From Paludibacteraceae bacterium (GTDB taxonomy: Bacteria; Bacteroidota; Bacteroidia; Bacteroidales; Paludibacteraceae): a DNA stretch of 64,000 bases. The stretch is taken from contig JAILMN010000030.1 of NCBI GenBank assembly GCA_024692565.1, positions 43 to 64,042 on the forward strand. Reading direction: 5' to 3'. Under the pieces are notes generated by a model. The model was given only the letters and a program-made list of their open reading frames with translations. It was not told the DNA's origin and made no database searches. Made by a program: the position numbers and the translations under genes. Of this stretch, positions 45,242 to 58,856 are shown piece after piece (within the stretch, counting starts at the first letter, position 1; each line of letters starts with the position of its first letter).

Positions 45242-45316
45242 TGGGCGTTTACGGATTCGAACCGCAGACCCTCTGCTTGTAAGGCAGATGCTCTAAACCA
45301 GCTGAGCTAAACGCCC
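45242..45316 (-). tRNA. tRNA-Val (anticodon TAC)
   Basis: Reverse complement GGGCGTTTAGCTCAGCTGGTTTAGAGCATCTGCCTTACAAGCAGAGGGTCTGCGGTTCGAATCCGTAAACGCCCA folds as a cloverleaf with anticodon loop CTTACAA. No encoded CCA. Has its own promoter and a downstream hairpin. Confidence 0.9.
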
Positions 45317-45425: not shown

Positions 45426-46838
45426 TCATCTCTGCTTGTCAAAATGGATGCCATTCAGTCGCTTCATTTGCCGATGGAACCGTACATGGAAGAGGACTGC
45501 CGGAATAGCCAACGCGATGACGAACGCGAGCCACATACCCTTTGCTCCGAGGCCTAACGGGAACGTGAGCGTGATGCCCAACGGTAGCGCCACACCGATA
45601 TAAGCGAACAAAGCGATGCGCATCGGCACCCGCACATCCTGGATACCACGCAGCATGGCAGCTCCGATACATTGCAGTCCGTCGGCATATTGGAATGTTC
45701 CGGCGATGATGAGCAGCGTTGAAGCGATAGGAATCACTTCCGGATCACTCGTAAAAATATACGGTATCACATTGCGTCCGAAGATCATGATGGCCGCACC
45801 TATCGTATTCATCAATAAGCACAAATGTACCGACGCATGACTCGCCATACGCACGGCTTGCAGGTCACCTTTGCCTAATTGATGCGAAACGCGGATAGTC
45901 GTTGCCGAACCGATTCCCAAGGCTAACATAAACGTCAAATCAGCCATCTGATTAGCTATATGGTGCGCCGCCAACGACTCCTTACTGATCCAACCGATGA
46001 TGACAAACGAAGCTGTAAAAAGGAAGGCTTCCGCGAAGGACTGCAAACCGATCGGCATGCCGATATTGATCAGGTGTTCCACTTCGCGACGCGTGATGAG
46101 CCAACGACGCATGGACGTAATATACCGTCGCCATTCGGTCTTCCAAAGCATCGCGATGAAGAAACAAACCGGCATCAGGCATCGCGCAATAAGGCTTGCC
46201 CACCCTGCGCCTTCGGCACCCATCGCTTCAAAGCCCCAGTGACCATAAATGAACACCCAGTTCAGCAATATATTGAGCAAATTACAACCGATAGTGATGA
46301 GCATCGCGACAGTCGTGTTACCGAGTCCTTCCAAAAATTGTTTGCTGAACGAGAACAACAGAAACGGCACGATGGAGAGGACAATGAGAATGTAATACGG
46401 TCGTGCGCATTTGACCACCTCGGGTTCTTGTCCGAACGCATCCAGAAAACCGATACACGGAGCGAGTAACGCCAACGAGAACACGCTCATGATAGCGGTA
46501 AAGACCAGACCGTTGATGAGGTACGCCGTGATCTGCTCGTGTTTATGCGCAATCTCATCGTCCGTAGTGCCTTCGACCAGCAGTTTCTCAAGTCGTCCGT
46601 GCACGTGTCCGACGAGCGGCGTGATACCCATGAGCGCACCCATCGCGAACACCATCACCGTGAAAAACAGCGCATTGGAGAAACTGACCGCCGCCAAGTC
46701 TGCCGTACCGTAGTGCCCCACCATGATCGAGTCAGCCAGGCCCACCAACGCAGCACCGAGCTGCGTCAGCATCACCGGAAACGCCAACTTCAGGTTGCGT
46801 TTGTAGTACGGATAATATGCCCGAAACGAATAACTCAC
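45426..46838 (-). CDS. MATE family efflux transporter
   Basis: 12-TM protein with a NorM-like N-terminus (LAFPVMLTQLGAALVGLADSIMVG). Confidence 0.9.
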   Translation of the reverse strand: MSYSFRAYYPYYKRNLKLAFPVMLTQLGAALVGLADSIMVGHYGTADLAAVSFSNALFFTVMVFAMGALMGITPLVGHVHGRLEKLLVEGTTDDEIAHKHEQITAYLINGLVFTAIMSVFSLALLAPCIGFLDAFGQEPEVVKCARPYYILIVLSIVPFLLFSFSKQFLEGLGNTTVAMLITIGCNLLNILLNWVFIYGHWGFEAMGAEGAGWASLIARCLMPVCFFIAMLWKTEWRRYITSMRRWLITRREVEHLINIGMPIGLQSFAEAFLFTASFVIIGWISKESLAAHHIANQMADLTFMLALGIGSATTIRVSHQLGKGDLQAVRMASHASVHLCLLMNTIGAAIMIFGRNVIPYIFTSDPEVIPIASTLLIIAGTFQYADGLQCIGAAMLRGIQDVRVPMRIALFAYIGVALPLGITLTFPLGLGAKGMWLAFVIALAIPAVLFHVRFHRQMKRLNGIHFDKQR

Positions 46839-46852
46839 TGCTCCATCGCCAA

Positions 46853-47329
46853 CTAAAGCGTATGTCTTAACATCCCTTGACAGCCTTCCAATATATCCTC
46901 GTACGCTTTCGTAAAATCACCCGTGTACCAGGGGTCAGCCACGTCACGCGTTTTCCCTGCCCATGCCATCATCAGCGACACTTTGCGATCCGTACTACCT
47001 GAATGGATATCTTGCTCCGGTTCTAAACCGGTGATGTAGCGCATCCATCTCAGATTGCTCTGATCCATGCACACGATATAGTCGTAATATGCATAGTCTG
47101 CCTGCGTCATCTGTCGCGCCGCACGATGCTCAAACGGCACATTTTTCGCAGCCAACATCCGCTTAGCCGGAGGATAAATGTCATTGCCGATCTCTTCTGT
47201 GGACACCGCAGCCGAAGCAATCTCGAACTCGTCCGCACGACCTGCATGCTCCACCAATTGCTTCATGATATACTCCGCCATCGGTGACCGGCATATGTTG
47301 CCGTGACATATAAAAAGAATCTTAATCAT
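46853..47329 (-). CDS. low molecular weight protein-tyrosine phosphatase
   Basis: Start at MIKILFICHGNICRSPMAE with the CX5R(S) P-loop. The upstream part of the track ORF crosses the promoter. Confidence 0.88.
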   Translation of the reverse strand: MIKILFICHGNICRSPMAEYIMKQLVEHAGRADEFEIASAAVSTEEIGNDIYPPAKRMLAAKNVPFEHRAARQMTQADYAYYDYIVCMDQSNLRWMRYITGLEPEQDIHSGSTDRKVSLMMAWAGKTRDVADPWYTGDFTKAYEDILEGCQGMLRHTL

Positions 47330-47346
47330 GTCCTCAGATTTGCGTG

Positions 47347-47378
47347 CAAAGGTACGAAAAAAAAATGATATATGCAAG
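47347..47378 (-). promoter_or_regulatory. LMW-PTP promoter (-33 CTTG variant / -7 TACCTTTG)
   Basis: CTTGCATATATCATTTTTTTTTCGTACCTTTGCACGCAAA with a 20-nt spacer. Confidence 0.7.
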
Positions 47379-47441
47379 AAAAAGGGTGTAAAAAAAAGCT
47401 TCATATACCGTAATTGGACCGATGTTGACTCGATAATGACC

Positions 47442-47540
47442 CGTTAACTCCTCGTTAACTCTCGTGCAAAAGTAATCGGAGTTTTATCGGTATTACATCG
47501 GAGGTAAATCGGGGTTTTATCGAGGTTTTGTCGGGTTGTC
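47442..47540. repeat. 11-bp phased array, 9 units (CGTTAACTCNY x2, a -7-like unit, ATCGGNGNTTT x6)
   Basis: cgttaactcct cgttaactctc gtgcaaaagta atcggagtttt atcggtattac atcggaggtaa atcggggtttt atcgaggtttt gtcgggttgtc, in an unbroken 11-bp register. Confidence 0.85.
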
Positions 47541-47654
47541 GTTGGAAGATGATCCCGTGATGGTATTGTTATTCACAGCTTGCCAGCCCTGCCAGCCTAT
47601 AACAAAAATAAATAAATTCCTTTTTTAGAAAAAATTATTAATGATAGCCTGCCC

Positions 47655-47690
47655 GCCATGCCCCATATAATAGCATGGCTTTTATTTTTT
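47655..47690 (+). terminator. orphan plus-strand intrinsic terminator
   Basis: GCCATGC-cccatataata-GCATGGC followed by TTTTATTTTTTTT. No plus-strand ORF lies upstream. Confidence 0.5.
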
Positions 47691-47801
47691 TTATTATTAT
47701 TTTATTATATGTGTCCGATTTTCGCACACTATTGCACGAAATCCGTACAAACACGCACGATTTCCGTTCATGCGTGTCCGGTATCCGTTCATTTGGAAGC
47801 C

Positions 47802-48155
47802 TTAAAACGGCACATTAGTACCCTCTGCATCTGAAAAAGTGTCCGGATTTCGGACAATGGGCTTTTCCGGCTCTACTTTAGAAGGCAAATCACGATGGAA
47901 GTTGCTGAGAATGAAGCCGTTACAGTGACGGATGTAGGCTTTCTCTTCCAGGCGATTAATGATGTCATTCATAGTAGACGGGCTCACATGCAGCACTTTC
48001 GCCAAGCGTCTGGTAGATCCGCGCCAGCCTTGCTTACCCAACTCTTCCGAATTGGTCAAACCATTGATATACGCGAATACTGCGACGTCGGTGAGGGACA
48101 GCCCCAACTCCTCCAACATCCAACTCTGTATCGAAAAATAAAAACTCTTAGCCAT
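47802..48155 (-). CDS. winged-helix DNA-binding protein (mobile-element type)
   Basis: Start at MAKSFYFSIQSWMLEELGLSLTDVAVFAYINGL with a MarR/replication-initiator-like wHTH. Canonical -7 box upstream. Confidence 0.5.
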   Translation of the reverse strand: MAKSFYFSIQSWMLEELGLSLTDVAVFAYINGLTNSEELGKQGWRGSTRRLAKVLHVSPSTMNDIINRLEEKAYIRHCNGFILSNFHRDLPSKVEPEKPIVRNPDTFSDAEGTNVPF

Positions 48156-48175
48156 GATCGTTTTCAAATCTGCTG

Positions 48176-48207
48176 CAAAGGTACAACAAATTTTTGGAAT
48201 GTGCAAG
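48176..48207 (-). promoter_or_regulatory. wHTH gene promoter (-33 CTTG / -7 TACCTTTG)
   Basis: CTTGCACATTCCAAAAATTTGTTGTACCTTTGCAGC with a 20-nt spacer. Confidence 0.65.
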
Positions 48208-48220
48208 GATTGTTACAGAA

Positions 48221-48257
48221 AAATAATACAGGCTTGATAATATAGCCTGTATTATTT
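48221..48257 (-). terminator. terminator retained downstream of the tail remnant
   Basis: AAATAATACAGGC-ttgataatata-GCCTGTATTATTT is a 13-bp perfect stem. A T-run follows on the minus strand. Confidence 0.7.
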
Positions 48258-48281
48258 GGAGTTAGAGTGTGTGAGGATTCT

Positions 48282-48365
48282 TTATTTGACCTCTTGACCG
48301 GTGAGGGTGTAGGTCTTCTCCCCGCGGAGGATGAGGATTTGGCCGTTGACGAGGATGAAAATGTG
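48282..48365 (-). pseudogene. orphan 3' remnant of a surface-protein gene (conserved C-terminal tail only)
   Basis: Minus strand reads ...IFILVNGQILILRGEKTYTLTGQEVK*. 22 nt (48313-48334) are identical to 49632-49653 in the LRR gene tail. No upstream ORF, and its terminator hairpin is retained. Confidence 0.65.
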
Positions 48366-48477
48366 AAATTTTGGCAAATCGGCTCAAAAAAGTAAGATTT
48401 TTTGCATTTTTTGATTCAATTTGAGCCGATTATTCAAATATTTTTTGTAATTTTGCACCGATTTTACAATTTGGCTT

Positions 48478-49512
48478 ATGGAAACAGCACGAGAAATACT
48501 GCAATTTTTGCACTATCATCCTTCTTCTTCGCGTGAAGAAATCCGAACAGGTATCGGTTTTGAAGAAAGCGATGCGACTCTCAAAAGGACTATTGCTGCC
48601 GGAGTAGAAAAAGGAGACATTGTTGTTGGAGGAAAAGCGCGCGCGACGCGTTATTCCTTGTCTAATCGCGCGCATTTGTTAATGCCGCTGAATTTGGACA
48701 CCTATTTTGCGCAAGAGACTGATGAGCGACAAGTGCAGACGAGTTTTAATTTTGCACTTATAAATGAGCGACTTCCGCAAGTATCGCTCTTTACGGAGGA
48801 TGAATTGGCGCGTTTGAATGCGTTACAAGCAGAGTTCCGCGCACACTTGGCAGATATGAGTGAGAGTGAATATCGCAAGGAAATGGAACGATTGGGTATT
48901 GACCTGAGTTGGAAATCCTCGCAGATAGAGGGAAACACCTATTCGCTGCTGGAGACAGAACGTCTGTTGCGCGAAAGTAAGACCGCGGAGGGGAAAACCA
49001 AAGAGGAAGCAGTAATGCTTTTGAATCATAAGGATGCTTTGCGGTTTGTATTGGACAATCCGGATTATTTGCAGACACTGACCATTGGTCATATAGAGGA
49101 CATTCATCAACTATTGACCAAAGAATTGTCGGTAGATACTGGTTTGCGGCATCGCCGTGTGGGTATAACCGGTACGCAATACAGACCATTGGACAATGAG
49201 TTTCAGATCCGTGAAGCGATGTGTGATACCTGCGAACTCATTAATAGCCGTACGAACGTGTTTGATAAAGGCTTGTTGGCTCTGTTGCTGCTGAGTTATA
49301 TTCAGCCGTTCATGGACGGCAATAAGCGCACGGCACGTATTACGAGCAATGCTTTGCTGATTGCGAATGGTTATTGCCCACTCTCTTTTAGAACGGTGGA
49401 TTCGATTGATTATAAGAAGGCTATGCTCATTTTCTACGAGCAAAACAACTTGCACGCCTTTAAGCAAATCTTCATTGACCAATATGAATTTGCCGTAAGG
49501 GAATACTTCTAA
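48478..49512 (+). CDS. Fic family protein with N-terminal wHTH; catalytic His replaced by Gln
   Basis: Fic loop reads QPFMDGNKRTAR (CAG at 49303-49305) instead of HPFxDGNxR. An SSQIEGN inhibitory-helix-like motif is present. Confidence 0.85.
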   Translation: METAREILQFLHYHPSSSREEIRTGIGFEESDATLKRTIAAGVEKGDIVVGGKARATRYSLSNRAHLLMPLNLDTYFAQETDERQVQTSFNFALINERLPQVSLFTEDELARLNALQAEFRAHLADMSESEYRKEMERLGIDLSWKSSQIEGNTYSLLETERLLRESKTAEGKTKEEAVMLLNHKDALRFVLDNPDYLQTLTIGHIEDIHQLLTKELSVDTGLRHRRVGITGTQYRPLDNEFQIREAMCDTCELINSRTNVFDKGLLALLLLSYIQPFMDGNKRTARITSNALLIANGYCPLSFRTVDSIDYKKAMLIFYEQNNLHAFKQIFIDQYEFAVREYF

Positions 49513-49519
49513 AACAAAC

Positions 49520-49551
49520 ACACGGGCGACTCATTATTGAGCCGCCCGTGT
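49520..49551. terminator. bidirectional terminator between the convergent Fic and LRR genes
   Basis: ACACGGGCGaCTCA-ttat-TGAGcCGCCCGTGT. Confidence 0.7.
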
Positions 49552-49600
49552 TGTTAAATCACAAATTTGAAATTATAAATCTCAAATGTGAAACTCGGTT

Positions 49601-52600
49601 TCACTTTACCTCTTGTCCCGTAACGGTATATGTCTTCTCCCCGCGGAGGATGAAGATTTGACCGTTGCGGATGAATTTTTGAGCACCGTTAATGTTGGCG
49701 GGCATATCGTCTATGCCCTGCGAAGCAGGCATGGTGAATTGAACCGATTGCTCAAACAATTTGGTGTCAGAGTCATCTTTTGCCGTCACGGAATAGGTGT
49801 AGGTTGCGCCTGCTTCCATTCCTGTAACGGTATAAGTCCAACCCTTTCCGGCTTGCGTTGCAGCGACTACATTTCTACCATCCTTATTGCGGGCAGGGGC
49901 TGCGAACCGGATAGCCAGCAATTGTCCATTCTCATTGAAGACCAGAGTACAGATGATTTCTCCGTTTTTAGCAATCTCAATGGTATATATAGTTGCGCCC
50001 TCCACGGCCGGCCATGCAATAACAACACTTCCGTCTTCGGTAGGAGTAGCCGTTACTTCCGTTGTTTGCGTTTCCTCTGCCTGACCATGCACTTCTTTCG
50101 GAGTGCCTTTGTAGGTGGCTTTATAGGTAAAATCTTTGATGGCTGGAGAGATAGTAGGCGTCCAACCTCTAAACTCGTAGGTATAGTACTCGTCATCTGC
50201 ACGCATAGGCGTTGCGCCAGTATATTCAGGCGTTGTGGCAAACTCGACAGGTGAACTCTGCAATTCTGTGCCATCCCAGTTGATGAAACGGATGGTATAA
50301 TAGGTCTTTTCGCTGGTCCGTTCGAGGATTTCGAAAGTACCGTTGGATATTTCCGGAGTAGATTGGTTGTAAACAGAAAGTTTACCTACTATTTTCACTT
50401 TATCTCCCACATTCGGAGCTTCATCAGCAGTCTCACATTTGGCGCTATAAGCCTCAAATACTTTGCCGCCGTCTTTCGTGTCGGCCATCCAGAAAGAAAC
50501 ACTCTTAAACGAGGAACTCCAAAGGTAAACGTATTCTGTAACATAACCAACAACTGTTACCTCATCGGTGCTTCCTCCAAGTGCCGCTTCTCGAGCTTCA
50601 GTACAGGTCATCGCACCTTCCGGCAGTTCTCCCGCTGAACAATCAACGATAGTTACCGTTCTCTTTTCACCGGATAGACTATTTAACTTGTAGCAAGTGC
50701 TTGCTGTTACATCGTTGATATCTACGGTCTGATCTCCTTCTCCATTAGTCCAAATGATATTTACCGATTTGATAGAAGAAGCGAAGGTGTAACTGTACCA
50801 ACCGTCCGTATTAGTGACGGCTATACCAGGCCATTCATATCCGGAAATACCATCGCCCCAGTAGAACAACTTGACAACATCCCAAGCAGCTGCGCTGGAT
50901 GCTTGCAAACGAACGGTTATTGATTCTGCACACTTCGAGTCTTGCCAATCACTAATCCTTACATAGGCAAGGCCCGAATTCGTTATGACAATATTTCCAT
51001 CGTCATCAATTGAGGCGTTCGCTGTCGTTTTCGCGTCAATAACAGAGTAATTTATGGCCTGACCTTCCCAATAGTTATCGTCTGGATAAATCAAACATAT
51101 TTTACCTATCAGGCCGATTGTGCCGAGTTTGTAGGTCGCCTTATACCAAGTTCGCGTTCCTTCAATCTTAGTGAATTTAATGCACTCATCTGTAGAAGCA
51201 TTTACTTTTGTTTCGCCAACGTAAGTGTTTGGACTGCTCCAAGTTGAACCATCCATTGTTCCTTTGAACGCAATGCCGTTACATTCAGAACCTTCAGGAA
51301 TGTTAATAACGATTGTCGCATAACCCTCTGCGGGGGAAGTTACTGTCACATCGTCAACTTCATCCCCACTTACTCTTTCAAGAATTTCGAAGGTGCCACC
51401 GGCATCTATTCCGGGTGTAGTGGAATTATACACAGTGAGTTTGCCTGTAACTTTCACTTTATCACCAACAACCGGTGCCTCTGCCTGAGTTGCGCAATTA
51501 ATGCGGTAAGCTTCTAACACTTTTCCTCCGTCCTTGTTGTCGGCCATCCAGAAAGAGATGTTTTTGTACGTAGCATCCCAAGCAAAAAGGATGTCAGTCA
51601 CGTATCCTATAACACTCACCTCGTCCGTCCTGCCACCTAACGCAGCCTCACGAGCCTCAGCGCAGGTCATTGAGGAATCGTTTTGTTTATATAGGGCAGT
51701 TACCGTCAAGTCGGATGTTACATTACTAAACTCTTTGTCCCAACCGGTAAATGTATAGCCTTCGCGAATTGGATCTGCTGGTGAAGTAGCATCTTGTAAG
51801 TATTCAACTGTATCTACTTTTAGTATTGATGCATCCCAGTCCACAAATTGTACGATATATGTGTTAATTGAATATTGCGCAGTTACCGTCAAGTCGGATG
51901 TCACATTACTAAAGTCCTTATCCCAACCTGCAAAGGTATAGCCTTTGCGGGTCGGGTCTACAGGGGCAGTAGCAGATTGGCCATATTCAACAGTGTCGGT
52001 TTTCAGTATTGTTCCGTCCCAATCTAAAAATATAAGGGTATAATACGTCGTACCTCCTATAGCCCTTATATTAGTGAAGTCTTTCCACGAATCTGCTGCT
52101 TTGTAAGCCGCTACACTCTCTGCCGGGACGTAAACGGGAATCTTTTTATCCACCATGTTGAATGCATTAGTAGCACAAGTGGGAGGGACATCCGCCTCGC
52201 AGGTGATACTCGTTAGACCGCTACAATTATAGAAAGCTTCGAACGAAATACTTGTCACACTACTTGGCATAGTGATACTTGTCAAACCGGAGCAATAAGC
52301 GAAAGTCCTCTCTCCAATGCTTGTGACGCTGTTGCCAATTGTTACACTCGTCAGACCAGAGCAATCACTGAAAGCCTCATCACCTATACTTGTGACACTA
52401 TTAGGAATAGTCACACTTGATAGATTTGAGCAGTAAGAAAAAGCACTATTTCCAATGTTTGTGACGCTGTTAGGAATACTAATATTCCCTGTCGCGGCAT
52501 AAGAACATGCAGAAAGACTTGTTTTCGAATTGTCACTATAAACAAACAACCCGTCTACATAGCCCCCAACTGTTCGTGCACCGGTCCATTCATTATCCCA

Positions 52601-53473
52601 TATTTTTGCAGTATAAACAACATTTGGCACAAGCTGGAAAGCCATTTCTTCAATATCTGTTACACTACTAGGAATAATTAAATTCATCAAACTCAAACAT
52701 AATGCGAAAGTCCAAGCTCCAATGCTTGTGACGGTATTGGGAATTTCAATACTCGTTAGACTCTCGCAGTCTTGAAAAGCACCGCCTCCAATGCTAGTGA
52801 CACTGCTGGGAATGGTCACACTCGTCAAACTGGAGCAATTATAGAAAGCACTACTTCCAATGCTAGTGACACTGCTGGGAATGGTCACACTCGTCAAACT
52901 GGAGCAATTATAGAAAGCACCACTTCCAATGCTAGTGACACTGCTGGGAATGGTCACACTTAATAGACCAGAGCAACCATAGAAAGCATTACTTCCAATC
53001 CATTTGGTTCCTTCTTTTATGGTATATGTAGTCAGCGATTCGTCCGCGGCGCACACTAAGTATGTATCTGCATAGCGTAGATTATCAATCACAGGAAGAC
53101 TTATACAATCTCTAAACGCCTCATCACCTATACTTGTGACACTATTAGGAATAGTCACACTTGATAGATCTGAGCAGTAAGAAAAAGCACCGCCTCCAAT
53201 GCTAGTGACACTGCTGGGAATGGTCACACTCGTCAAACTGGAGCAATTATAGAAAGCACCGCCTCCAATGCTAGTGACACTATAAGTTACACTATTATAA
53301 GTAACCGAAGAGGGAATAACGACTTCACCTGAATAACTACCGCCCTTGGTTACTTCTGCTGTCCGGCCATTAGCATCCAAATTGTATGCGATGCCATCTA
53401 TAGTAACTGAGGCATTGATAATTCCTACGCTGGCTACCAGCACGAGGAATAAAGAAAAAAGCTTTGTTTTCAT
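49601..53473 (-). CDS. BspA-type leucine-rich repeat surface protein with Listeria-Bacteroides repeats, duplicated OB-like domains and a conserved C-terminal tail
   Basis: Signal peptide MKTKLFSLFLVLVASVGIINA. More than 15 23-aa LRR units (SVTIPSSVTSIGxxAFxxCSSLT). GYTFxGWD repeats x3. An alternative start lies at 53485. Confidence 0.85.
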   Translation of the reverse strand: MKTKLFSLFLVLVASVGIINASVTIDGIAYNLDANGRTAEVTKGGSYSGEVVIPSSVTYNSVTYSVTSIGGGAFYNCSSLTSVTIPSSVTSIGGGAFSYCSDLSSVTIPNSVTSIGDEAFRDCISLPVIDNLRYADTYLVCAADESLTTYTIKEGTKWIGSNAFYGCSGLLSVTIPSSVTSIGSGAFYNCSSLTSVTIPSSVTSIGSSAFYNCSSLTSVTIPSSVTSIGGGAFQDCESLTSIEIPNTVTSIGAWTFALCLSLMNLIIPSSVTDIEEMAFQLVPNVVYTAKIWDNEWTGARTVGGYVDGLFVYSDNSKTSLSACSYAATGNISIPNSVTNIGNSAFSYCSNLSSVTIPNSVTSIGDEAFSDCSGLTSVTIGNSVTSIGERTFAYCSGLTSITMPSSVTSISFEAFYNCSGLTSITCEADVPPTCATNAFNMVDKKIPVYVPAESVAAYKAADSWKDFTNIRAIGGTTYYTLIFLDWDGTILKTDTVEYGQSATAPVDPTRKGYTFAGWDKDFSNVTSDLTVTAQYSINTYIVQFVDWDASILKVDTVEYLQDATSPADPIREGYTFTGWDKEFSNVTSDLTVTALYKQNDSSMTCAEAREAALGGRTDEVSVIGYVTDILFAWDATYKNISFWMADNKDGGKVLEAYRINCATQAEAPVVGDKVKVTGKLTVYNSTTPGIDAGGTFEILERVSGDEVDDVTVTSPAEGYATIVINIPEGSECNGIAFKGTMDGSTWSSPNTYVGETKVNASTDECIKFTKIEGTRTWYKATYKLGTIGLIGKICLIYPDDNYWEGQAINYSVIDAKTTANASIDDDGNIVITNSGLAYVRISDWQDSKCAESITVRLQASSAAAWDVVKLFYWGDGISGYEWPGIAVTNTDGWYSYTFASSIKSVNIIWTNGEGDQTVDINDVTASTCYKLNSLSGEKRTVTIVDCSAGELPEGAMTCTEAREAALGGSTDEVTVVGYVTEYVYLWSSSFKSVSFWMADTKDGGKVFEAYSAKCETADEAPNVGDKVKIVGKLSVYNQSTPEISNGTFEILERTSEKTYYTIRFINWDGTELQSSPVEFATTPEYTGATPMRADDEYYTYEFRGWTPTISPAIKDFTYKATYKGTPKEVHGQAEETQTTEVTATPTEDGSVVIAWPAVEGATIYTIEIAKNGEIICTLVFNENGQLLAIRFAAPARNKDGRNVVAATQAGKGWTYTVTGMEAGATYTYSVTAKDDSDTKLFEQSVQFTMPASQGIDDMPANINGAQKFIRNGQIFILRGEKTYTVTGQEVK
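52788..52965 (-). repeat. near-perfect 69-bp (23-codon LRR) tandem units x2.6
   Basis: The unit ccaatgctagtgacactgctgggaatggtcacactcgtcaaactggagcaattatagaaagcac... restarts at 52788, 52857 and 52926. Confidence 0.9.
53196..53282 (-). repeat. second block of the same 69-bp LRR unit
   Basis: The same unit restarts at 53196 and 53265, about 270 bp from the first block. Confidence 0.9.
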
Positions 53474-54090
53474 TATTCTATACATTTAAGTTCAACAATA
53501 TGTATTCCTGCCGGACAATAGAAATCGTCTACTAATTGTTTATAATCGGGGATATCACTAAAATCCGTCCATCTGTTATTCCTCTGCGTTATTCTCTTAT
53601 TTTCTGATTGCAATATTCGAGCAATATGCATTTTGTCAAGGATTTTCATTACATCATCCGGGCACAAAGGAGATTGGTGATTCTCAAGCACTTTTATAAC
53701 ATCAGAAACAGGAGTTATATGTTCAGAGATGAATATTTTATTGAAAGGAGTTTTTTTGCCTTCCTCTATAATAATACTCTCTCCTATTTCCATTGTATCA
53801 TCCAATTTATTAATGTCGATTTGTTGTTGGAAAGTAAATTTTCGGATATCATCATCTGTTATAGAGTCCCAAACCTTCTTTGCCGCTTCAGATATATGCC
53901 AATGATCTTGAGGTATAATATATTGGCGTACAGCTTGGTTTAACAAGTATCCAAATTGAATAGGGTTGTTTTTAAATACCTTTTTTGCATCAAGCAATGA
54001 AATGATTGTATCTACAAGTGGCTTGTTCCTGCAGATTCTTTCTTCTTCTGACATTTCTACAGGATAGAATGCAGTTTGATTTTTTGTCAT
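53473..54090 (-). CDS. hypothetical protein (weak EHxxP...N nuclease-like motif)
   Basis: 205-aa ORF that looks AT-rich relative to flanks. Its stop shares one nt with the LRR ATG (TAATG). ISEHITPV...ARILQSENKR is faintly DUF1524/HNH-like. No confident family. Confidence 0.55.
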   Translation of the reverse strand: MTKNQTAFYPVEMSEEERICRNKPLVDTIISLLDAKKVFKNNPIQFGYLLNQAVRQYIIPQDHWHISEAAKKVWDSITDDDIRKFTFQQQIDINKLDDTMEIGESIIIEEGKKTPFNKIFISEHITPVSDVIKVLENHQSPLCPDDVMKILDKMHIARILQSENKRITQRNNRWTDFSDIPDYKQLVDDFYCPAGIHIVELKCIE

Positions 54091-54179
54091 AGTATTAAAT
54101 TTTAGTTCGCCTCCATTTTGATATTAGGGAGGAGGCGTTATCCTTTGTATTAGTTTTAATGTTCGCGCATATACATACG

Positions 54180-54211
54180 AAAAAGCGTGAAGTTCACTTG
54201 TTCTTCACGCT
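54180..54211 (-). terminator. intrinsic terminator ending the structured leader
   Basis: Minus strand AGCGTGAAG-aacaagtgaa-CTTCACGCT followed by TTTTT, 90 nt upstream of the ORF205 ATG. Confidence 0.7.
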
Positions 54212-54470
54212 AATCCAGGGCTTCGCAATCCCCTCTTACAGTAGAAAAACAACCGAATTCCACGCCCGATATGTATAACCCACCTCGCCCTCGCGGGCGT
54301 GGAGTATCTAACATACCCACATGGACATTCATTGCGGTTGTCACGACTGTAAGATGAATTTTGCGAAGATTCGGATTAGTCGCAAACAACGTTAATAAAC
54401 GCCTTTTTATGTACTCACTTTTTTACACTGTTGAGCCCAGTGGTATTGGTTCAAAAACCTTTGCGGCTGC
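54180..54470 (-). ncRNA. structured 5' leader / candidate cis-regulatory RNA ending in an intrinsic terminator
   Basis: A canonical promoter (54470-54501) is followed by about 290 nt with no ORF. It holds nested long-range helices, competing hairpins and the terminator at 54180-54211. Confidence 0.45.
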
Positions 54471-54552
54471 AAAGGTACAACAAAAAAATGACACATGCAA
54501 ATTTTTGTGCCATTTTTTGCGAAATTTCAAAATATCAGCTGTTATTCTGCGT
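54459..54552 (-). repeat. 93-bp direct repeat, copy 1 (stop-codon context + promoter + palindromic -7 box)
   Basis: Nearly identical to 54990-55082. Runs from ...ttattctgcgt to the hairpin CCTTTGC-AGCC-GCAAAGG. Confidence 0.9.
54470..54501 (-). promoter_or_regulatory. promoter of the structured leader / ORF205-LRR operon
   Basis: TTTGCATGTGTCATTTTTTTGTTGTACCTTTGCAGCC with a 20-nt spacer. Confidence 0.75.
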
Positions 54553-54900
54553 CTATTTCACGCATTTTTGCTTGTAAGAGTTTCTTGTCCGGCAAGCAAA
54601 GCTTATATTCTGCTACCATCCAAGGGCTGATTTCATCGAGTTCTCCGTCTTGTATTCCTTGCCTCCTATAAACTCCATTACATACTGATCACGGAACACT
54701 TGTTCTGCGGAAGGAGCAATTTCTCTCAACAGTGGTGAGAGTTTTTCATCCGCATTGCGATAGGCCTCGTAAAACTGTTTCATTCGCCAGAGGTTCTGAG
54801 CAGAGAAACCCTTCAAATCAGGCGCTTTGCGGGTGATATATTCCGCCAACTGCTGTACGACACTATCTCCCCATTGAGCTGATTCAAAACGCCTTTTTCA
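54542..54900 (-). pseudogene. decayed DUF1016 (YhcG-like PD-(D/E)xK nuclease) gene
   Basis: Three fragments lie in two frames: WGDSVVQQLAEYITRKAPDLKGFSAQNLWRMKQFY, FRDQYVMEFIGG, and the C-terminal EYKLCLPDKKLLQAKMREIDAE*. The N-terminus and nuclease core are missing. Confidence 0.65.
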
Positions 54901-54989
54901 TATGTTCTGTATTCACCCACCCGAAAGACATATACCCTCGGCGTGGGCTTAATACTACAAAACTTTCTTAGCCACAGGGGCACGATTCA

Positions 54990-55082
54990 TTTTGCGCTGC
55001 AAAATTACACAAAAAAAATGACACATGCAAATTTTTGTGCCATTTTTTGCGAAATTACAAAATATCAGCTGTTATTCTGCGT
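54990..55082 (-). repeat. 93-bp direct repeat, copy 2 (includes the last codons of sod)
   Basis: Same element 530 bp away. The hairpin here is ATTTTGC-AGC-GCAAAAT, with both arms changed together. Confidence 0.9.
55000..55031 (-). promoter_or_regulatory. duplicate promoter downstream of sod, facing the DUF1016 relic
   Basis: TTTGCATGTGTCATTTTTTTTGTGTAATTTTGCAGC with a 20-nt spacer. Confidence 0.65.
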
Positions 55083-55668
55083 ATCTGCGATTGATCTCGT
55101 CCCAATTGATAATCTGCCAGAGTGCTTGGAGATGTGCCGCACGACGATTGCGATAGTCGATGTAATAGGCATGCTCCCAAACATCCATCGTCAACAGCGG
55201 TTTCAGGCCTTTGGTGACGGGGTTACCGGCATTGGGTTCCTGAGTAATGACGAGTTTACCGTCCTTGTCCGAAGCGAGCCAAACCCAGCCAGAACCGAAG
55301 AGTGTCGTCCCTTTCTGCTCAAACTCCGCTTTGAAAGCATCGAACGAACCGAAATCGCGGTTGATGGCGGCGAGTATGGCTCCTTTCGGCGCGTGGTTGT
55401 CGGCTGCAACCGGAGAGAACTGCAAGAAATACAGATTATGGTTCAAAATCTGTCCGGCATTGTTAAAGATGCCGCCTTGCGATTTGGCGACAATCTGCTC
55501 CAACGGCATGGACTCGAATTCCGTTCCGGCAACGAGTTTGTTGAGGTTGTCCACATAGGTTTGCAAGTGCTTACCGTGGTGATATTCAATCGTCTCTTGA
55601 CTGATCACCGGTTCCAGCGCATTGGGTGCGTAGGGCAAAGTGATCAGAGTAAATAATACCTCAATCAT
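55072..55668 (-). CDS. sodB: Fe/Mn superoxide dismutase
   Basis: LPYAPNALEP, HHGKHH-like and DVWEHAYYIDYRN motifs. Confidence 0.93.
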   Translation of the reverse strand: MIEVLFTLITLPYAPNALEPVISQETIEYHHGKHLQTYVDNLNKLVAGTEFESMPLEQIVAKSQGGIFNNAGQILNHNLYFLQFSPVAADNHAPKGAILAAINRDFGSFDAFKAEFEQKGTTLFGSGWVWLASDKDGKLVITQEPNAGNPVTKGLKPLLTMDVWEHAYYIDYRNRRAAHLQALWQIINWDEINRRYAE

Positions 55669-55672
55669 AATG

Positions 55673-55704
55673 TTTAAAGAATTAAAGAGTTAACGAATTA
55701 ACGA
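55673..55704 (-). repeat. octamer array NTTAAMGA x4 filling the rubrerythrin-sod spacer
   Basis: tttaaaga attaaaga gttaacga attaacga, followed directly by the rubrerythrin stop (55705-55707). Confidence 0.9.
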
Positions 55705-56280
55705 TCAATAATTTTCCGCGAGTAACTGGAAATAGGCCTGGGCGTGGTGGCAAACGGGACACTCTTCCGGAGCAGCCTTGCCGACAACGATATGGCCACA
55801 GTTGGAGCATTGCCAGATACAATCGCCGTCACGTGAGAAGACCACTTTATCCTCGATGTTCTTGAGCAGTTTGCGATAACGCTCTTCGTGGTGTTTCTCA
55901 ATCTCGCCTACCATCGCAAACTTGGCAGCAATCTCGATAAATCCCTCTTCCTCAGCCTCTTTCGCCATGCGAGCATACATGTCCGTCCACTCGGCATTCT
56001 CACCTGCAGCAGCATCGGCCAGGTTGGCAGCAGTGTCGCTGATCTTACCACCGTTCAGGTATTTGTACCAGAGTTCTGCGTGCTCTTTCTCGTTGGCAGC
56101 AGTCTCCTCAAAAATCTTGCTAATCTGCACATAACCATCCTTTTTAGCCTTCGATGCGAAATAGGTGTACTTGTTACGCGCCATCGATTCACCGGCAAAA
56201 GCCTCCATGAGGTTCTTCTCGGTCTTTGTTCCTTTTAAGTTGTTCTTAGCCGCAGGGGCACGACTAATTTCATTGTTCAT
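55705..56280 (-). CDS. rbr: rubrerythrin
   Basis: Diiron ExxH motifs plus a C-terminal rubredoxin-like CxxC...CxxC. Confidence 0.92.
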
Positions 56281-56310
56281 AATGTTGTGAGTTTATTGGG
56301 TTAAACGTTT

Positions 56311-57021
56311 CTATTTTTTTGCTAAAAGACGGGTATTATACCATTTTTTATCCTCGAAACGGCTGAAAATGGCATAGCAAACGACGGTGATGATGAGGCC
56401 GACACAACTGCCGCCGAAGACATCCATCGCGAAATGTTGGCTGAGATAGATGCGGCTGTAACCGCCCAATACTGCCAGCACAAAGAGCAACAACTGGACC
56501 GCTACGCTGCAAGACCACTGCGCTATTAGACCGCTACGCTGCGAGACCGGCTGAGCCTTTGAGATTTTTTGAGTAGCCAGTATGGAAGCGGCGAAAGCGA
56601 GTGCGAAGAAAGAAGTGGTATGTCCGGAGGGGAAAGACAGCCAATGGTTCATCTGCACGCCGTCCACCAGCGGTAATTGAATCTCCGGCATGTTGGATTC
56701 GAACCAAATAAGCGGTCGAGGTGCATTGAGAATATGCTTGATGATCTGCGTCGTCAACGCAGACATCGCTTGGCAGGAAGCCGCAAAAGCAGCGTCACCT
56801 ACACGACCGAAAAGCAGTATTATTGCGCATAAGGCATACGGAAACCACTCCGCTACATGCGTATAATAGCGGAAGAAGATATCTCCTGCCGGTGTGTGCC
56901 GATCGCATAGCCAGAGATGCAGATCTCCTTTCTGGACCAGTAATAAGGCCAAGCCCATCGTGATAAGATACGCCAGGCTCAGACCTATGAAGACTGCATT
57001 GCGCTTGATAAAATCTTTCAT
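56311..57021 (-). CDS. PAP2 family phosphatase
   Basis: Multi-TM protein with KHILNAPRP, PSGH and SRIYLSQHFAMD motifs. Confidence 0.75.
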   Translation of the reverse strand: MKDFIKRNAVFIGLSLAYLITMGLALLLVQKGDLHLWLCDRHTPAGDIFFRYYTHVAEWFPYALCAIILLFGRVGDAAFAASCQAMSALTTQIIKHILNAPRPLIWFESNMPEIQLPLVDGVQMNHWLSFPSGHTTSFFALAFAASILATQKISKAQPVSQRSGLIAQWSCSVAVQLLLFVLAVLGGYSRIYLSQHFAMDVFGGSCVGLIITVVCYAIFSRFEDKKWYNTRLLAKK

Positions 57022-57038
57022 TGCAAGTGCGAATTGGT

Positions 57039-58856
57039 TTATTTAATCGGTTGTCCCAAGACCGTATATTCGGATGCATTGCGGATGATGACTACTTTGC
57101 CTTCGCGAATCTCCTTGCGTGCGGTGTTACCCACCGACAGATCGTCGAGAGCTTGCTCCTCGCTATACTCATCGCCGTAACTCTGCTGCATCTTCGTGAA
57201 ATCAACCGCTTCGCCTTGTTTTTTACCCCAGATATACTCCGCGAGTTCAGGATAGTCAATAAACGGATTGCGGTTACCTTGGATCTTATTGACCTCGATA
57301 GCACGGTCCAGTTCTTTCTTGCTCACCGGATCCATACGATGCCATTCGAGCAACAGGTCACGCAGCCACGGACGGAACTCCTGCCAACCTTCATTGGTCA
57401 TAGCCTGACCCGGTTCGCCGGACGTTAACCACGTGAGCGAATCGCCGTAGCATGTAGCGATATAGAAATACGCGCGGGCGAAATCACCCTTGTACTCATC
57501 TGCCGGACAGAAAACGCGTTTCAAATCATGAATAGCATCATAACCGGTAACAAAACTGCCGTTATTGAATGAACTATCCGCAGGCACACCCGGCGCGTGA
57601 TTCGATTTGCTGCGGTTAGCCGAAGCATCGCCGGGAACCAGATGATAGATGTCGCAGTAAGCAGGGTTGACGTCCCCACCCCACCAGCTCTTCGGCAACA
57701 TATGCTCGATGTCAAAGCCGGCAACGCTGGCTGTCGGGTTCGCCGGGTCGAAGTAGCGATGGTCATTGGAATACATATCGAGCACTTCGTTGGTCAGCGT
57801 GTCGCGGTCAGTATGGAAGAAAGCGTCCCAACTCTTACGCGGACCGCTACCATAACGGTAACGTTTGCCGACGCAGATGATAGCACCTAAATGGTTTTTC
57901 AGCACGGAATCTCGTTCTCCTTGCGCGAACTTATAATACGGACCGGGCATAGGGCCAATAGCCATGCGCGTGGTATCAATATCGAATGTGCTGGCGCCTT
58001 TGCCTTCAGGCTTGATAGTAACCGAAACCGGCACACTGCGACGAATCTTATTTCCACTCGTACCTTCTGCTGTGATGATGACCGAATCCTTATAAGTTAC
58101 CTGACTCTGCGGTGCGGAAGACATCGTTACACTATAGACCACACTCACTTCGCCGCCTTTGGAAGGTAAAGAGCTCGGAGTAACCGCGAATTTAGAGCTA
58201 TTCGACTTAACGGCAACGCTGATATTACCGTTGATATTTTTACCTGCGACCTCGAAATCAATCACATCTTCCATAGGTTCGTCTGCGCTTACCCAAGATA
58301 CAGCCTCAAAAGTAAGAGCTACGTACGGCATCTCCACAACGCCTTTGGTCGGGTTCGGGTTCTCTGCTTCAAACTCGATTTTCTGCACGTACCAGCGGTT
58401 GTAACTTGCTACTTGACCGGCAATTGCAATGGAATCTACATCGTTATTAACTTCAAATTTGTATGGACGAATAACTGTGCGATAACCTGCTTCCCAAATA
58501 AACTCATGATCATATACGTAAAATCCTCTTGCGGATGCAGTGTCTTTAGCGTGTGGATAAGTAGCTGCATATACGGTCATTGTCGTAATATGGTACGTTG
58601 CATCAAGCCCGAGCTTCAATTCGCCTTTGGCACTACTGGTTCCACCTTTGATACCAAAGCCCGGTTTCGCACGAGCTACTTTGCTGGCATAAATAATACT
58701 TTCCACGCAGTTATTGGTAGCCGAATATACGAGGGCTTCCAATTTGTCCGTAGCATTGCCATCACCATTCTCATTGCTGTTAAACACAATGGTGTAGGTC
58801 TCGGCGTTGACACCGATAGCCAAGACGGCTAAAAGGAGTAAAAAATACTTTCTCAT
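57039..58856 (-). CDS. secreted endonuclease I family nuclease with conserved C-terminal tail
   Basis: Signal peptide. FDIEHMLPKSWW...DIYHLVPGDASANRSKSN...GDFARAYFY is the Endonuclease_1 pattern. Tail is KEIREGKVVIIRNASEYTVLGQPIK. Confidence 0.75.
   Translation of the reverse strand: MRKYFLLLLAVLAIGVNAETYTIVFNSNENGDGNATDKLEALVYSATNNCVESIIYASKVARAKPGFGIKGGTSSAKGELKLGLDATYHITTMTVYAATYPHAKDTASARGFYVYDHEFIWEAGYRTVIRPYKFEVNNDVDSIAIAGQVASYNRWYVQKIEFEAENPNPTKGVVEMPYVALTFEAVSWVSADEPMEDVIDFEVAGKNINGNISVAVKSNSSKFAVTPSSLPSKGGEVSVVYSVTMSSAPQSQVTYKDSVIITAEGTSGNKIRRSVPVSVTIKPEGKGASTFDIDTTRMAIGPMPGPYYKFAQGERDSVLKNHLGAIICVGKRYRYGSGPRKSWDAFFHTDRDTLTNEVLDMYSNDHRYFDPANPTASVAGFDIEHMLPKSWWGGDVNPAYCDIYHLVPGDASANRSKSNHAPGVPADSSFNNGSFVTGYDAIHDLKRVFCPADEYKGDFARAYFYIATCYGDSLTWLTSGEPGQAMTNEGWQEFRPWLRDLLLEWHRMDPVSKKELDRAIEVNKIQGNRNPFIDYPELAEYIWGKKQGEAVDFTKMQQSYGDEYSEEQALDDLSVGNTARKEIREGKVVIIRNASEYTVLGQPIK

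Follow-up and report, generated by a model that had tools for sequence, protein, structure and literature searches.

The Bacteroidales are the dominant members of gut and rumen communities, and their surface proteins influence adhesion, the capture of glycans, sensitivity to phages and interaction with the host. Control of the respective genes is known to operate through invertible promoters, sigma/anti-sigma pairs and NusG paralogues. Among structured RNAs that act in cis, EAR, of the Bacillus eps operons, and put, of phage HK022, are examples that work through processive antitermination. The ERIC/IRU and Correia elements are examples of intergenic palindromic repeats that are transcribed together with their neighbours. 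Two systems in the Bacteroidales, GibS/FopS and UpxY-ops, are regulatory RNAs or leader elements for surface or outer-membrane functions: FopS presents a single-stranded seed and a terminator and acts in trans (PMC11697453), and the opsX sites are DNA and pause signals of about 40 bp, read by NusG paralogues (PMC11685472). Neither of these resembles the rod-shaped RNA described here, and no large cis-acting RNA for Bacteroidales surface-protein genes has been described in the sources that we searched.

The RNA in question is encoded within a 64-kb stretch of DNA that was analysed as a whole (hereafter, the window), and it represents a strongly supported and apparently undescribed family of structured leader RNAs of the Bacteroidales, with rods of about 235 nt located before genes for surface proteins. 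With attenuation leaders and riboswitch platforms the family shares the position between a promoter and a co-oriented operon, a conserved structured domain, a closing helix that overlaps a predicted intrinsic terminator, and exclusive folds that are predicted to be of nearly equal energy; unlike these, it forms a long viroid-like rod of about 88 bp and not a compact junction, its cargo consists of surface-protein and not metabolic genes, and it has no match in Rfam. The conserved structured 5'-leader domain with covariation by which riboswitches are recognized is present, and so is, by prediction, the G+C-rich hairpin followed by a U-tract that marks intrinsic terminators. EAR and put are likewise cis-acting structured RNAs heading long operons for cell-surface products, but the rod family matches no Rfam 15 family in sequence or structure and carries a conserved terminator of its own. 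The ERIC/IRU and Correia elements are also intergenic imperfect palindromes of 100-250 nt that are co-transcribed and form RNA hairpins; the rod family differs from them in its fixed orientation, in having ancient, divergent paralogues as its copies within a genome, in its combination of conserved loops with variable helices, and in a strong G.U bias on one strand. A third example is 6S RNA, a similarly sized rod in which the 5' end pairs with the 3' end; the present family, however, is multi-copy (at least four copies in some genomes), is tied to particular genes, has no large central bubble and gives no Rfam 6S match, and this identity was therefore rejected.

The features of the locus are collected in Table 1. 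The preliminary description, made from the sequence alone, had proposed five nested helices downstream of a promoter, in a leader free of open reading frames of 60 aa or more and closed by a terminator, and all of these elements are present. The ORFs of the leader reach 59 aa at most. An inverted-repeat search recovers repeat I2 (54210-28 / 54361-79), spanning H1 and H2, repeat I12 (54234-42 / 54346-54), which is H3, and repeat I8 (54259-68 / 54294-303), which is the fifth helix of that description, and the 7-bp H4 is seen in the minimum free energy (MFE) structure from RNAfold. As to the fifth helix, placed at 54294-302/54260-68, the complementarity does exist, but as an alternative only, as both the MFE structure and the family consensus use another pairing: CGGGCGUGG on the 3' side pairs with UCCAUGU (54325-54319) and not with CCACGCCCG, which in the MFE structure is part of the GNRA-capped apical hairpin. 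Below H1 the rod runs for about 23 further pairs, represented in the MFE structure by UUUGCG/CGUGAA, GUU/AAC and UUAUU/AGUGA, and then by AAAAGGCGU / ACGCUUUUU (54407-54399 / 54188-54180). The rod alone (237 nt, 54412-54176) folds at -94.9 kcal/mol (z = -7.6, RNAfold), and the 301-nt leader (54470-54170) at -110.3 kcal/mol, versus -78.3 +/- 5.1 for dinucleotide shuffles (z = -6.3, RNAfold), none of 100 shuffles matching the native folding energy.

Table 1. Positions of the leader RNA, its parts and the neighbouring features, numbered from the first nucleotide of the window.
Feature	Position	Strand	Remarks
87-nt direct repeat, copy A	54996-55082	minus	530-nt spacing from copy B
DUF1016 (YhcG-like) gene fragment	54613-54849	minus	Pfam DUF1016_N 6.6e-08; frame breaks
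87-nt direct repeat, copy B (sodB 3' end and promoter)	54466-54552	minus	94% identity to copy A
Promoter, -33 element TTTG	54501-54498	minus	direct reading; 20-nt spacer to the -7 element
Promoter, -7 element TACCTTTG	54477-54470	minus	direct reading
H-type pseudoknot unit	54414-54442	minus	between promoter and rod
Rod-shaped RNA	54180-54407	minus	about 88 bp, 17 helical segments
5' flank of rod (AAAAGGCGUUUAUUAACGUUGUUUGCG)	54381-54407	minus	MFE, family covariation
H1	54379-72/54217-10	minus	rod helix map
H2	54368-61/54228-21	minus	rod helix map
H3	54354-46/54242-34	minus	rod helix map
H4	54342-35/54255-48	minus	rod helix map
Middle helices	54325-19/54265-59 and 54317-11/54274-68	minus	rod helix map
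Apical hairpin CGCCC-GCGA-GGGCG, GNRA-capped	54299-54286	minus	rod helix map
Intrinsic-terminator-like hairpin AGCGUGAAG / CUUCACGCU and UUUUU	54179-54211	minus	inverted repeat I10
Spacer, terminator to ORF205	54091-54178	minus	without canonical -7 box
ORF205	53473-54090	minus	rare protein, nine clusters of homologues
1294-aa BspA-type LRR surface protein	49601-53485	minus	Pfam LRR_5 6.6e-93, Flg_new, CBM26
Fic gene	48478-49512		past the LRR gene
tRNA gene	45242-45316	minus	Rfam 70.4 bits; sole gathering-level match in the window

The RNA could not be placed in any known family when first described, and the Rfam scan proposed at that time agrees. At the gathering level, Rfam 15 recovers nothing in the 64-kb window besides the tRNA gene; a permissive scan of 53900-54800 (E <= 10) gives scores of 21.6 bits or less, versus gathering scores of at least 47; and eight diverse relatives give no match at E <= 0.5. 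The conserved strings of the family are absent from the literature searched, and the motif lists of Weinberg 2010 and 2017 contain nothing fitting, with the caveat that formal exclusion extends to motifs with an Rfam number, which Bacteroides-2 does not have in the 2010 table.

Relatives of the rod were sought in contigs carrying homologues of ORF205, by two pattern scans, and with an nhmmer profile run on the fetched loci. The profile recovers at least 143 related elements in the fetched loci and a single element in the window (54170-54412, E = 6e-55). A pattern of two conserved blocks, run over one genome per species, recovers at least 119 stretches, and a flank-based pattern, run over metagenomes, recovers 70 loci, about 22 of them true relatives and none of these with ORF205; about 45 of the 70 were rejected as chance matches, and nhmmer does not recover them. 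No match to the element is found in plasmid and phage collections, and the sole match in viral contigs, located inside a gene, was dismissed as chance. Among the matches listed, the host metagenome-assembled genomes (MAGs) are mostly labelled Paludibacteraceae or unclassified Bacteroidales, with fewer assigned to Prevotellaceae/Prevotella, Muribaculaceae, Parabacteroides, Barnesiella, Bacteroidaceae and Phocaeicola, and one cultured strain, Parabacteroides gordonii DSM 23371, is represented, with its element near position 183,400 of contig NZ_KQ033922.1 (locus L190). Three pattern matches (L142, L167 and L179) come from bins labelled Mycobacteriaceae, Lachnospiraceae and Gammaproteobacteria; L142 and L167 look like typical family sequences with Bacteroidales-style lipoprotein genes downstream, and these contigs may therefore be mis-binned. 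Copies within one genome are 63-85% identical to each other, while for each of them a closer relative, with 78-96% identity, is found in a different genome (among the matches listed), and, judged by these identities, same-genome copies are old paralogues inherited with their genes and not a spreading repeat.

The contigs with ORF205 homologues carry the same hairpin in the same place, with compensatory changes of whole helices, one example being H1, which is CTAATCC/GGATTAG in the window versus CTCCTTG/CAAGGAG in L006. In the L002-L004 and L008 groups the flanks are kept and the rod sequence is largely different, the nested architecture being the same. These variant rods (L002 3703-3920, L003, L004, and L008 10-216), situated between near-identical flanks, accompany ORF205 homologues that are 90% and 67% identical and possess a stronger 5' hairpin (GTGCAAGGCGTTGCAC). 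Rods of this type are not detected by the nhmmer profile, and the family must therefore be broader than the set collected. Among more distant ORF205 homologues, locus L009 (P0008) has no obvious element on reading, and neither L009 nor L010-L012 gives an nhmmer match.

For the analysis of covariation, 118 elements among the matches listed were reduced to 97 representatives at less than 93% identity, and 95 of these, with the divergent L002 and L008 types left out, were aligned with MAFFT (alignment A3). H3, H4 and the apex align poorly in A3 and were excluded from the covariation count, and the invariance of AAGGCGTT and ATATC.GGCGTG, both required by the search patterns, is not evidence. RNAalifold folds A3 into the extended rod, with 43 pairs, 23 of which show compensatory changes. 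In A3, 96.0% of the cells pair, versus 31-54% when the partners are slid by 1-3 columns, 619 cells are changed on both sides, versus at most 131 with slid partners, and none of 500 shuffles attains the observed value. Each position of H1 and H2 is occupied by four or five different types of pair. The helices drift in sequence while the internal loops stay conserved. G.U pairs outnumber A.C pairs by 23 to 1 (851 versus 37), which means that the fold exists on this strand only, and thus at the level of RNA and not of a DNA palindrome. Selection on RNA pairing, as opposed to a decaying DNA repeat, had been suggested from the window alone, and the abundant compensatory changes in homologous loci, where the helices are kept, bear this out.

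A promoter had been called at 54470-54501, and direct reading gives a putative one of the Bacteroidetes type there; its elements fit the Bacteroidetes -33/-7 consensus, and not that of sigma-70. Among the matches listed, the motif TAnnTTTG occurs within 200 nt upstream in 54 of 87 relatives, with a peak at -60 to -140, and is absent from this interval in about 38% of the copies. In the leader model, transcription would start about 60-140 nt upstream of AAAGGCGUU.

The pseudoknot located between the promoter and the rod consists, in the window, of S1 (CACUG/CAGUG), the loop GGCUCAA, the linker UAAAAAAG, and S2 (UGAG), which pairs with CUCA of the loop. The general unit is made up of a 5-bp S1, a 7-nt loop, a UAAAAAAG-like linker and an S2 of 4-5 nt pairing into the loop, and 36 such units are found in 91 upstream regions among the matches listed, versus 2.7 in shuffles, a 13-fold enrichment. 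Each ends 10-15 nt ahead of AAGGCGUU, and a comparison of copies shows covariation of the loop with S2. Upstream of the rod, units with an A-rich linker are found repeatedly in L084, L062, L097 and other loci, sometimes in tandem, with two or three copies and up to three in a row (L084). This unit shares with the preQ1-I pseudoknot the H-type topology, the 5-bp S1, the A-rich 3' linker and the short S2 pairing into the loop; unlike preQ1-I, its loop is of 7 nt only and varies freely so as to keep S2, and the units may be tandem. A preQ1-I aptamer was rejected as the identity of the unit, given the freely varying loops and the lack of a match to PreQ1 in Rfam.

The promoter sits within copy B of the 87-nt direct repeat, which includes the final codons of sodB along with the promoter, and the two copies flank the DUF1016 fragment. 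Past copy A, a second leader start is seen (ACATATGAAAAAGGCGTTTT, near 54905-54925), which then gives way to the DUF1016 fragment (region 54900-54995). The repeat and the broken second leader suggest that two leader copies have recombined, or that a cassette was exchanged at the leader. Genes positioned just upstream of the element are often of an 'island' type, represented by DUF1016/YhcG, RhuM-like proteins and AAA_14-DUF4143 ATPases (L041 2589-3731, L070 2093-3232, L030 7472-8362, L017 684-1568, L005 2094-3389, and the DUF1016 fragment of the window), these calls being made from N-terminal sequences, and from Pfam for L005 and the window fragment.

On the downstream side, the nearest ORF of at least 150 aa is co-oriented with the element in 95 of 98 cases among the matches listed, while the upstream neighbours, also among the matches listed, are mixed in orientation (53 to 20). 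The nearest downstream gene usually encodes a signal-peptide protein, a lipoprotein or an LRR protein, and in 84 of 106 cases, versus 44 of 216 in the background (among the matches listed), a signal-peptide-like protein is encoded by one of the first two downstream ORFs, many of these proteins being LRR proteins of the BspA type. A median gap of 95 nt separates the terminator from the ORF, and TAnnTTTG is found in this gap in 13 of 106 copies, both figures referring to the matches listed. This frequency, set against that upstream of the element, along with the co-orientation, agrees with the 5'-leader behaviour originally proposed. In the window, the spacer between the terminator and ORF205 was likewise said to be free of promoters, and no canonical -7 box is found in it. 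A hairpin, GCCUCC (54136-31) / GGAGGC (54114-09), with a 16-nt loop, is found in this spacer on the minus strand, some 20 nt ahead of the start codon of ORF205, and is kept only in the ORF205 group (L001-L004), not in the wider family.

ORF205 itself had been presented as the gene linked to the leader, and this link now appears incidental, as the gene is carried only by the few closest relatives and most elements are without it. The ORF205 protein has no match in Pfam, NCBIfam or PADLOC, and its AlphaFold model is poor (pLDDT 55). It does possess a conserved motif, FN..FI.EH.TP.SD, that looks like a His-Me finger. The presumed regulated cargo in the window is the LRR protein, whose gene overlaps the ORF205 stop by 13 nt and whose matches in NCBIfam are sub-threshold only, with the best score (123 bits, against a cut-off of 1250) obtained for the model of the LRR adhesin HupY/LrrG. 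Small ORFs situated like ORF205, between the RNA and the surface-protein gene, are mutually unrelated (L076 5291-6154, L041 4082-4747, L024 11258-11737, L159, and ORF205). One of these encodes a PvuRts1I-like methyl-directed restriction enzyme (PADLOC 4e-64), one a DUF4760 membrane protein, and two possess N-terminal GKT/GKS motifs, with a weak, sub-threshold AAA_23 match in the case of L159. The position that these ORFs occupy may serve defence-type genes as a landing site.

At the 3' end of the leader, a strong intrinsic terminator had been placed at 54180-54211, and a 9-bp stem with a U-tract is indeed predicted there: AGCGTGAAG (54211-54203) pairs with CTTCACGCT (54192-54184) across a 10-nt loop (I10), and UUUUU (54183-54179) follows directly. 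The consensus terminator scanner considers loops of up to 8 nt and hence missed it. Of 95 relatives, 90-92 have a hairpin flush with the U-tract, the variants of its stem being compensatory, and in the 92 of 95 copies where a hairpin adjoins the U-tract it has on average 8.7 bp and -11.8 kcal/mol (both among the matches listed). The stem covaries, as exemplified by GCGUGAAG/CUUCACGC, CGUGGAAC/GUUCCACG and GCGGGA/UCCCGC, and, since the genome search pattern demanded no terminator, its conservation is an independent observation.

The 5' arm of this terminator doubles as the 3' strand of P1, a helix at the base of the rod that also covaries (RNAalifold, A3 pair counts), while for P0 there is no covariation evidence and its invariance is partly due to the search patterns. 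The 5' flank of the rod in the window can form a hairpin of its own (GGCGUU/AACGUU) or provide the 5' strands of P0 and P1, pairing with the terminator region. In the family the 5' flank (AAAAGGCGUUUAUU.ACG...) is both complementary to the whole terminator region and self-complementary, and two exclusive folds follow from this. Forcing the terminator hairpin costs a median of 3.9 kcal/mol versus the MFE (among the matches listed), and 84 of 92 copies then have the 5' hairpin. For the nascent RNA at the stage when the 3' arm of the terminator is still to be made, the MFE structures of 91 of 92 copies already show the 5' arm of the terminator in a helix with the 5' flank. In these folding models, the base of the rod thus possesses two conserved, mutually exclusive and nearly isoenergetic folds. 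Mutually exclusive folds had been proposed earlier, but for the apex (54294-54302), where competition is not family-wide, because some subfamilies lack the complementarity and the consensus lacks H5 (the fifth helix).

The reading that we favour, with a probability of about 0.55, is that of an unclassified but widespread leader family in which the two alternative folds at the base set read-through into the co-oriented operon. Transcription would begin at the Bacteroidetes-type promoter, and the RNA would first fold one or more small pseudoknots and then the rod of about 235 nt. In one state, the 5' flank would pair with the terminator-forming segment (P0/P1, extended rod), leading to read-through; in the other, the 5' flank would fold on itself, and the 9-bp terminator hairpin would form beside the U-tract. 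The extended rod would let the polymerase pass, the local hairpin would stop it, and some factor would shift the balance between the two, thus setting transcription into the downstream co-oriented operon, which in the window would comprise ORF205 and the 1294-aa LRR adhesin-like protein, and elsewhere other secreted-protein or lipoprotein genes. For this scheme we infer the promoter, the transcript ends and the read-through from sequence. Of the earlier interpretation, selection on RNA, the lack of a known family, the leader, the terminator and the exclusive folds are retained, while the switch at the apex and the link to ORF205 are not.

An alternative that we consider unlikely, if deserving of attention, is a stand-alone, stable, rod-shaped sRNA that would always end at the U-tract and act in trans as a sponge or partner of a protein, the downstream gene having a non-canonical promoter of its own. 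The MFE structure joins both ends of the RNA in 87 of 95 copies, the terminator hairpin is conserved, variable helices are combined with conserved loops, as in protein-binding RNAs, and several divergent copies are present per genome, all of which such an sRNA would explain. In addition, the extended rod itself has a short terminal G-C helix beside the U-tract and might also terminate, in which case the RNA would be a stable sRNA. The co-orientation with the next gene, at 97%, is however hard to explain in this way, and so are the short gaps to that gene, mostly without a -7 box, and the inheritance of RNA and gene as a unit across genomes, as exemplified by L110 and L060, which share both.

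Improbable, in our assessment, is a processing or stability element, in which RNase III would cut the base helix in a read-through transcript and so set the 5' end and the half-life of the mRNA. The base of the rod does offer a stack of about 23 pairs, or 31 if H1 is counted in, that is seldom interrupted, and past the U-tract a GURURUAU motif is complementary to an ACAUA motif ahead of the A-tract, the native flanks pairing at -4.65 kcal/mol, versus -3.34 +/- 0.20 with shuffled 3' flanks. Non-cognate flanks, however, pair nearly as strongly (-4.29 +/- 0.17 kcal/mol): the pairing past the U-tract is real family-wide, with almost no copy-specific covariation. Cleavage by RNase III would also leave the conserved local terminator and the conserved internal loops unexplained. 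We regard as more doubtful still a processive antitermination RNA like EAR or put, which would modify RNA polymerase in cis by means of its pseudoknots, its rod, or both. The promoter-proximal position before long genes (up to 2157 aa) and the recurrence of structured units upstream of a terminator would suit such a function, but many of the cargo genes are short, and there is no likeness to any Rfam 15 family (EAR presumably included, if curated there).

A MITE or a DNA-level palindrome (cruciform or recombination site) is disfavoured and very improbable, even though the element as a whole forms an imperfect palindrome bounded by an A-tract and a T-tract, adjoins DUF1016, RhuM and AAA_14 genes in variable regions and, in the window, is accompanied by a truncated leader start and an 87-nt duplication that point to recombination at leaders, because only one strand can fold, the orientation relative to the next gene is fixed, same-genome copies are old and divergent, the window has a single copy, and the plasmid and phage collections have no match. 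An invertible promoter was also considered and rejected, as the complementarity runs through the whole element and not its ends alone, and the promoter is outside the element; no recombinase is seen in 45426-58856.

Returning to the favoured reading of a leader with two alternative folds at its base, the conserved loops suggest a protein or a small ligand as the interacting partner, and the regulated surface-protein genes hint at no metabolic ligand; the switch may be set by a ligand, by a protein or by folding kinetics alone, and a riboswitch is a possibility and not a finding. Tentatively, and with more doubt than confidence, we propose that the family may be a new class of leader RNA that responds to a signal, as a riboswitch or through an RNA-binding regulator that targets it, and that would gate operons for adhesin-like and other surface proteins in gut and rumen Bacteroidales. 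If this is true, the several divergent copies per genome would allow individual control of each surface gene. With over 140 representatives, strong covariation and a two-state terminator, the leader family would add an RNA layer to the control of surface proteins. It would also be a well-defined orphan RNA with which to search for a ligand or a protein, directly testable in a cultured host, Parabacteroides gordonii DSM 23371, and its addition to Rfam could improve the annotation of many MAGs.
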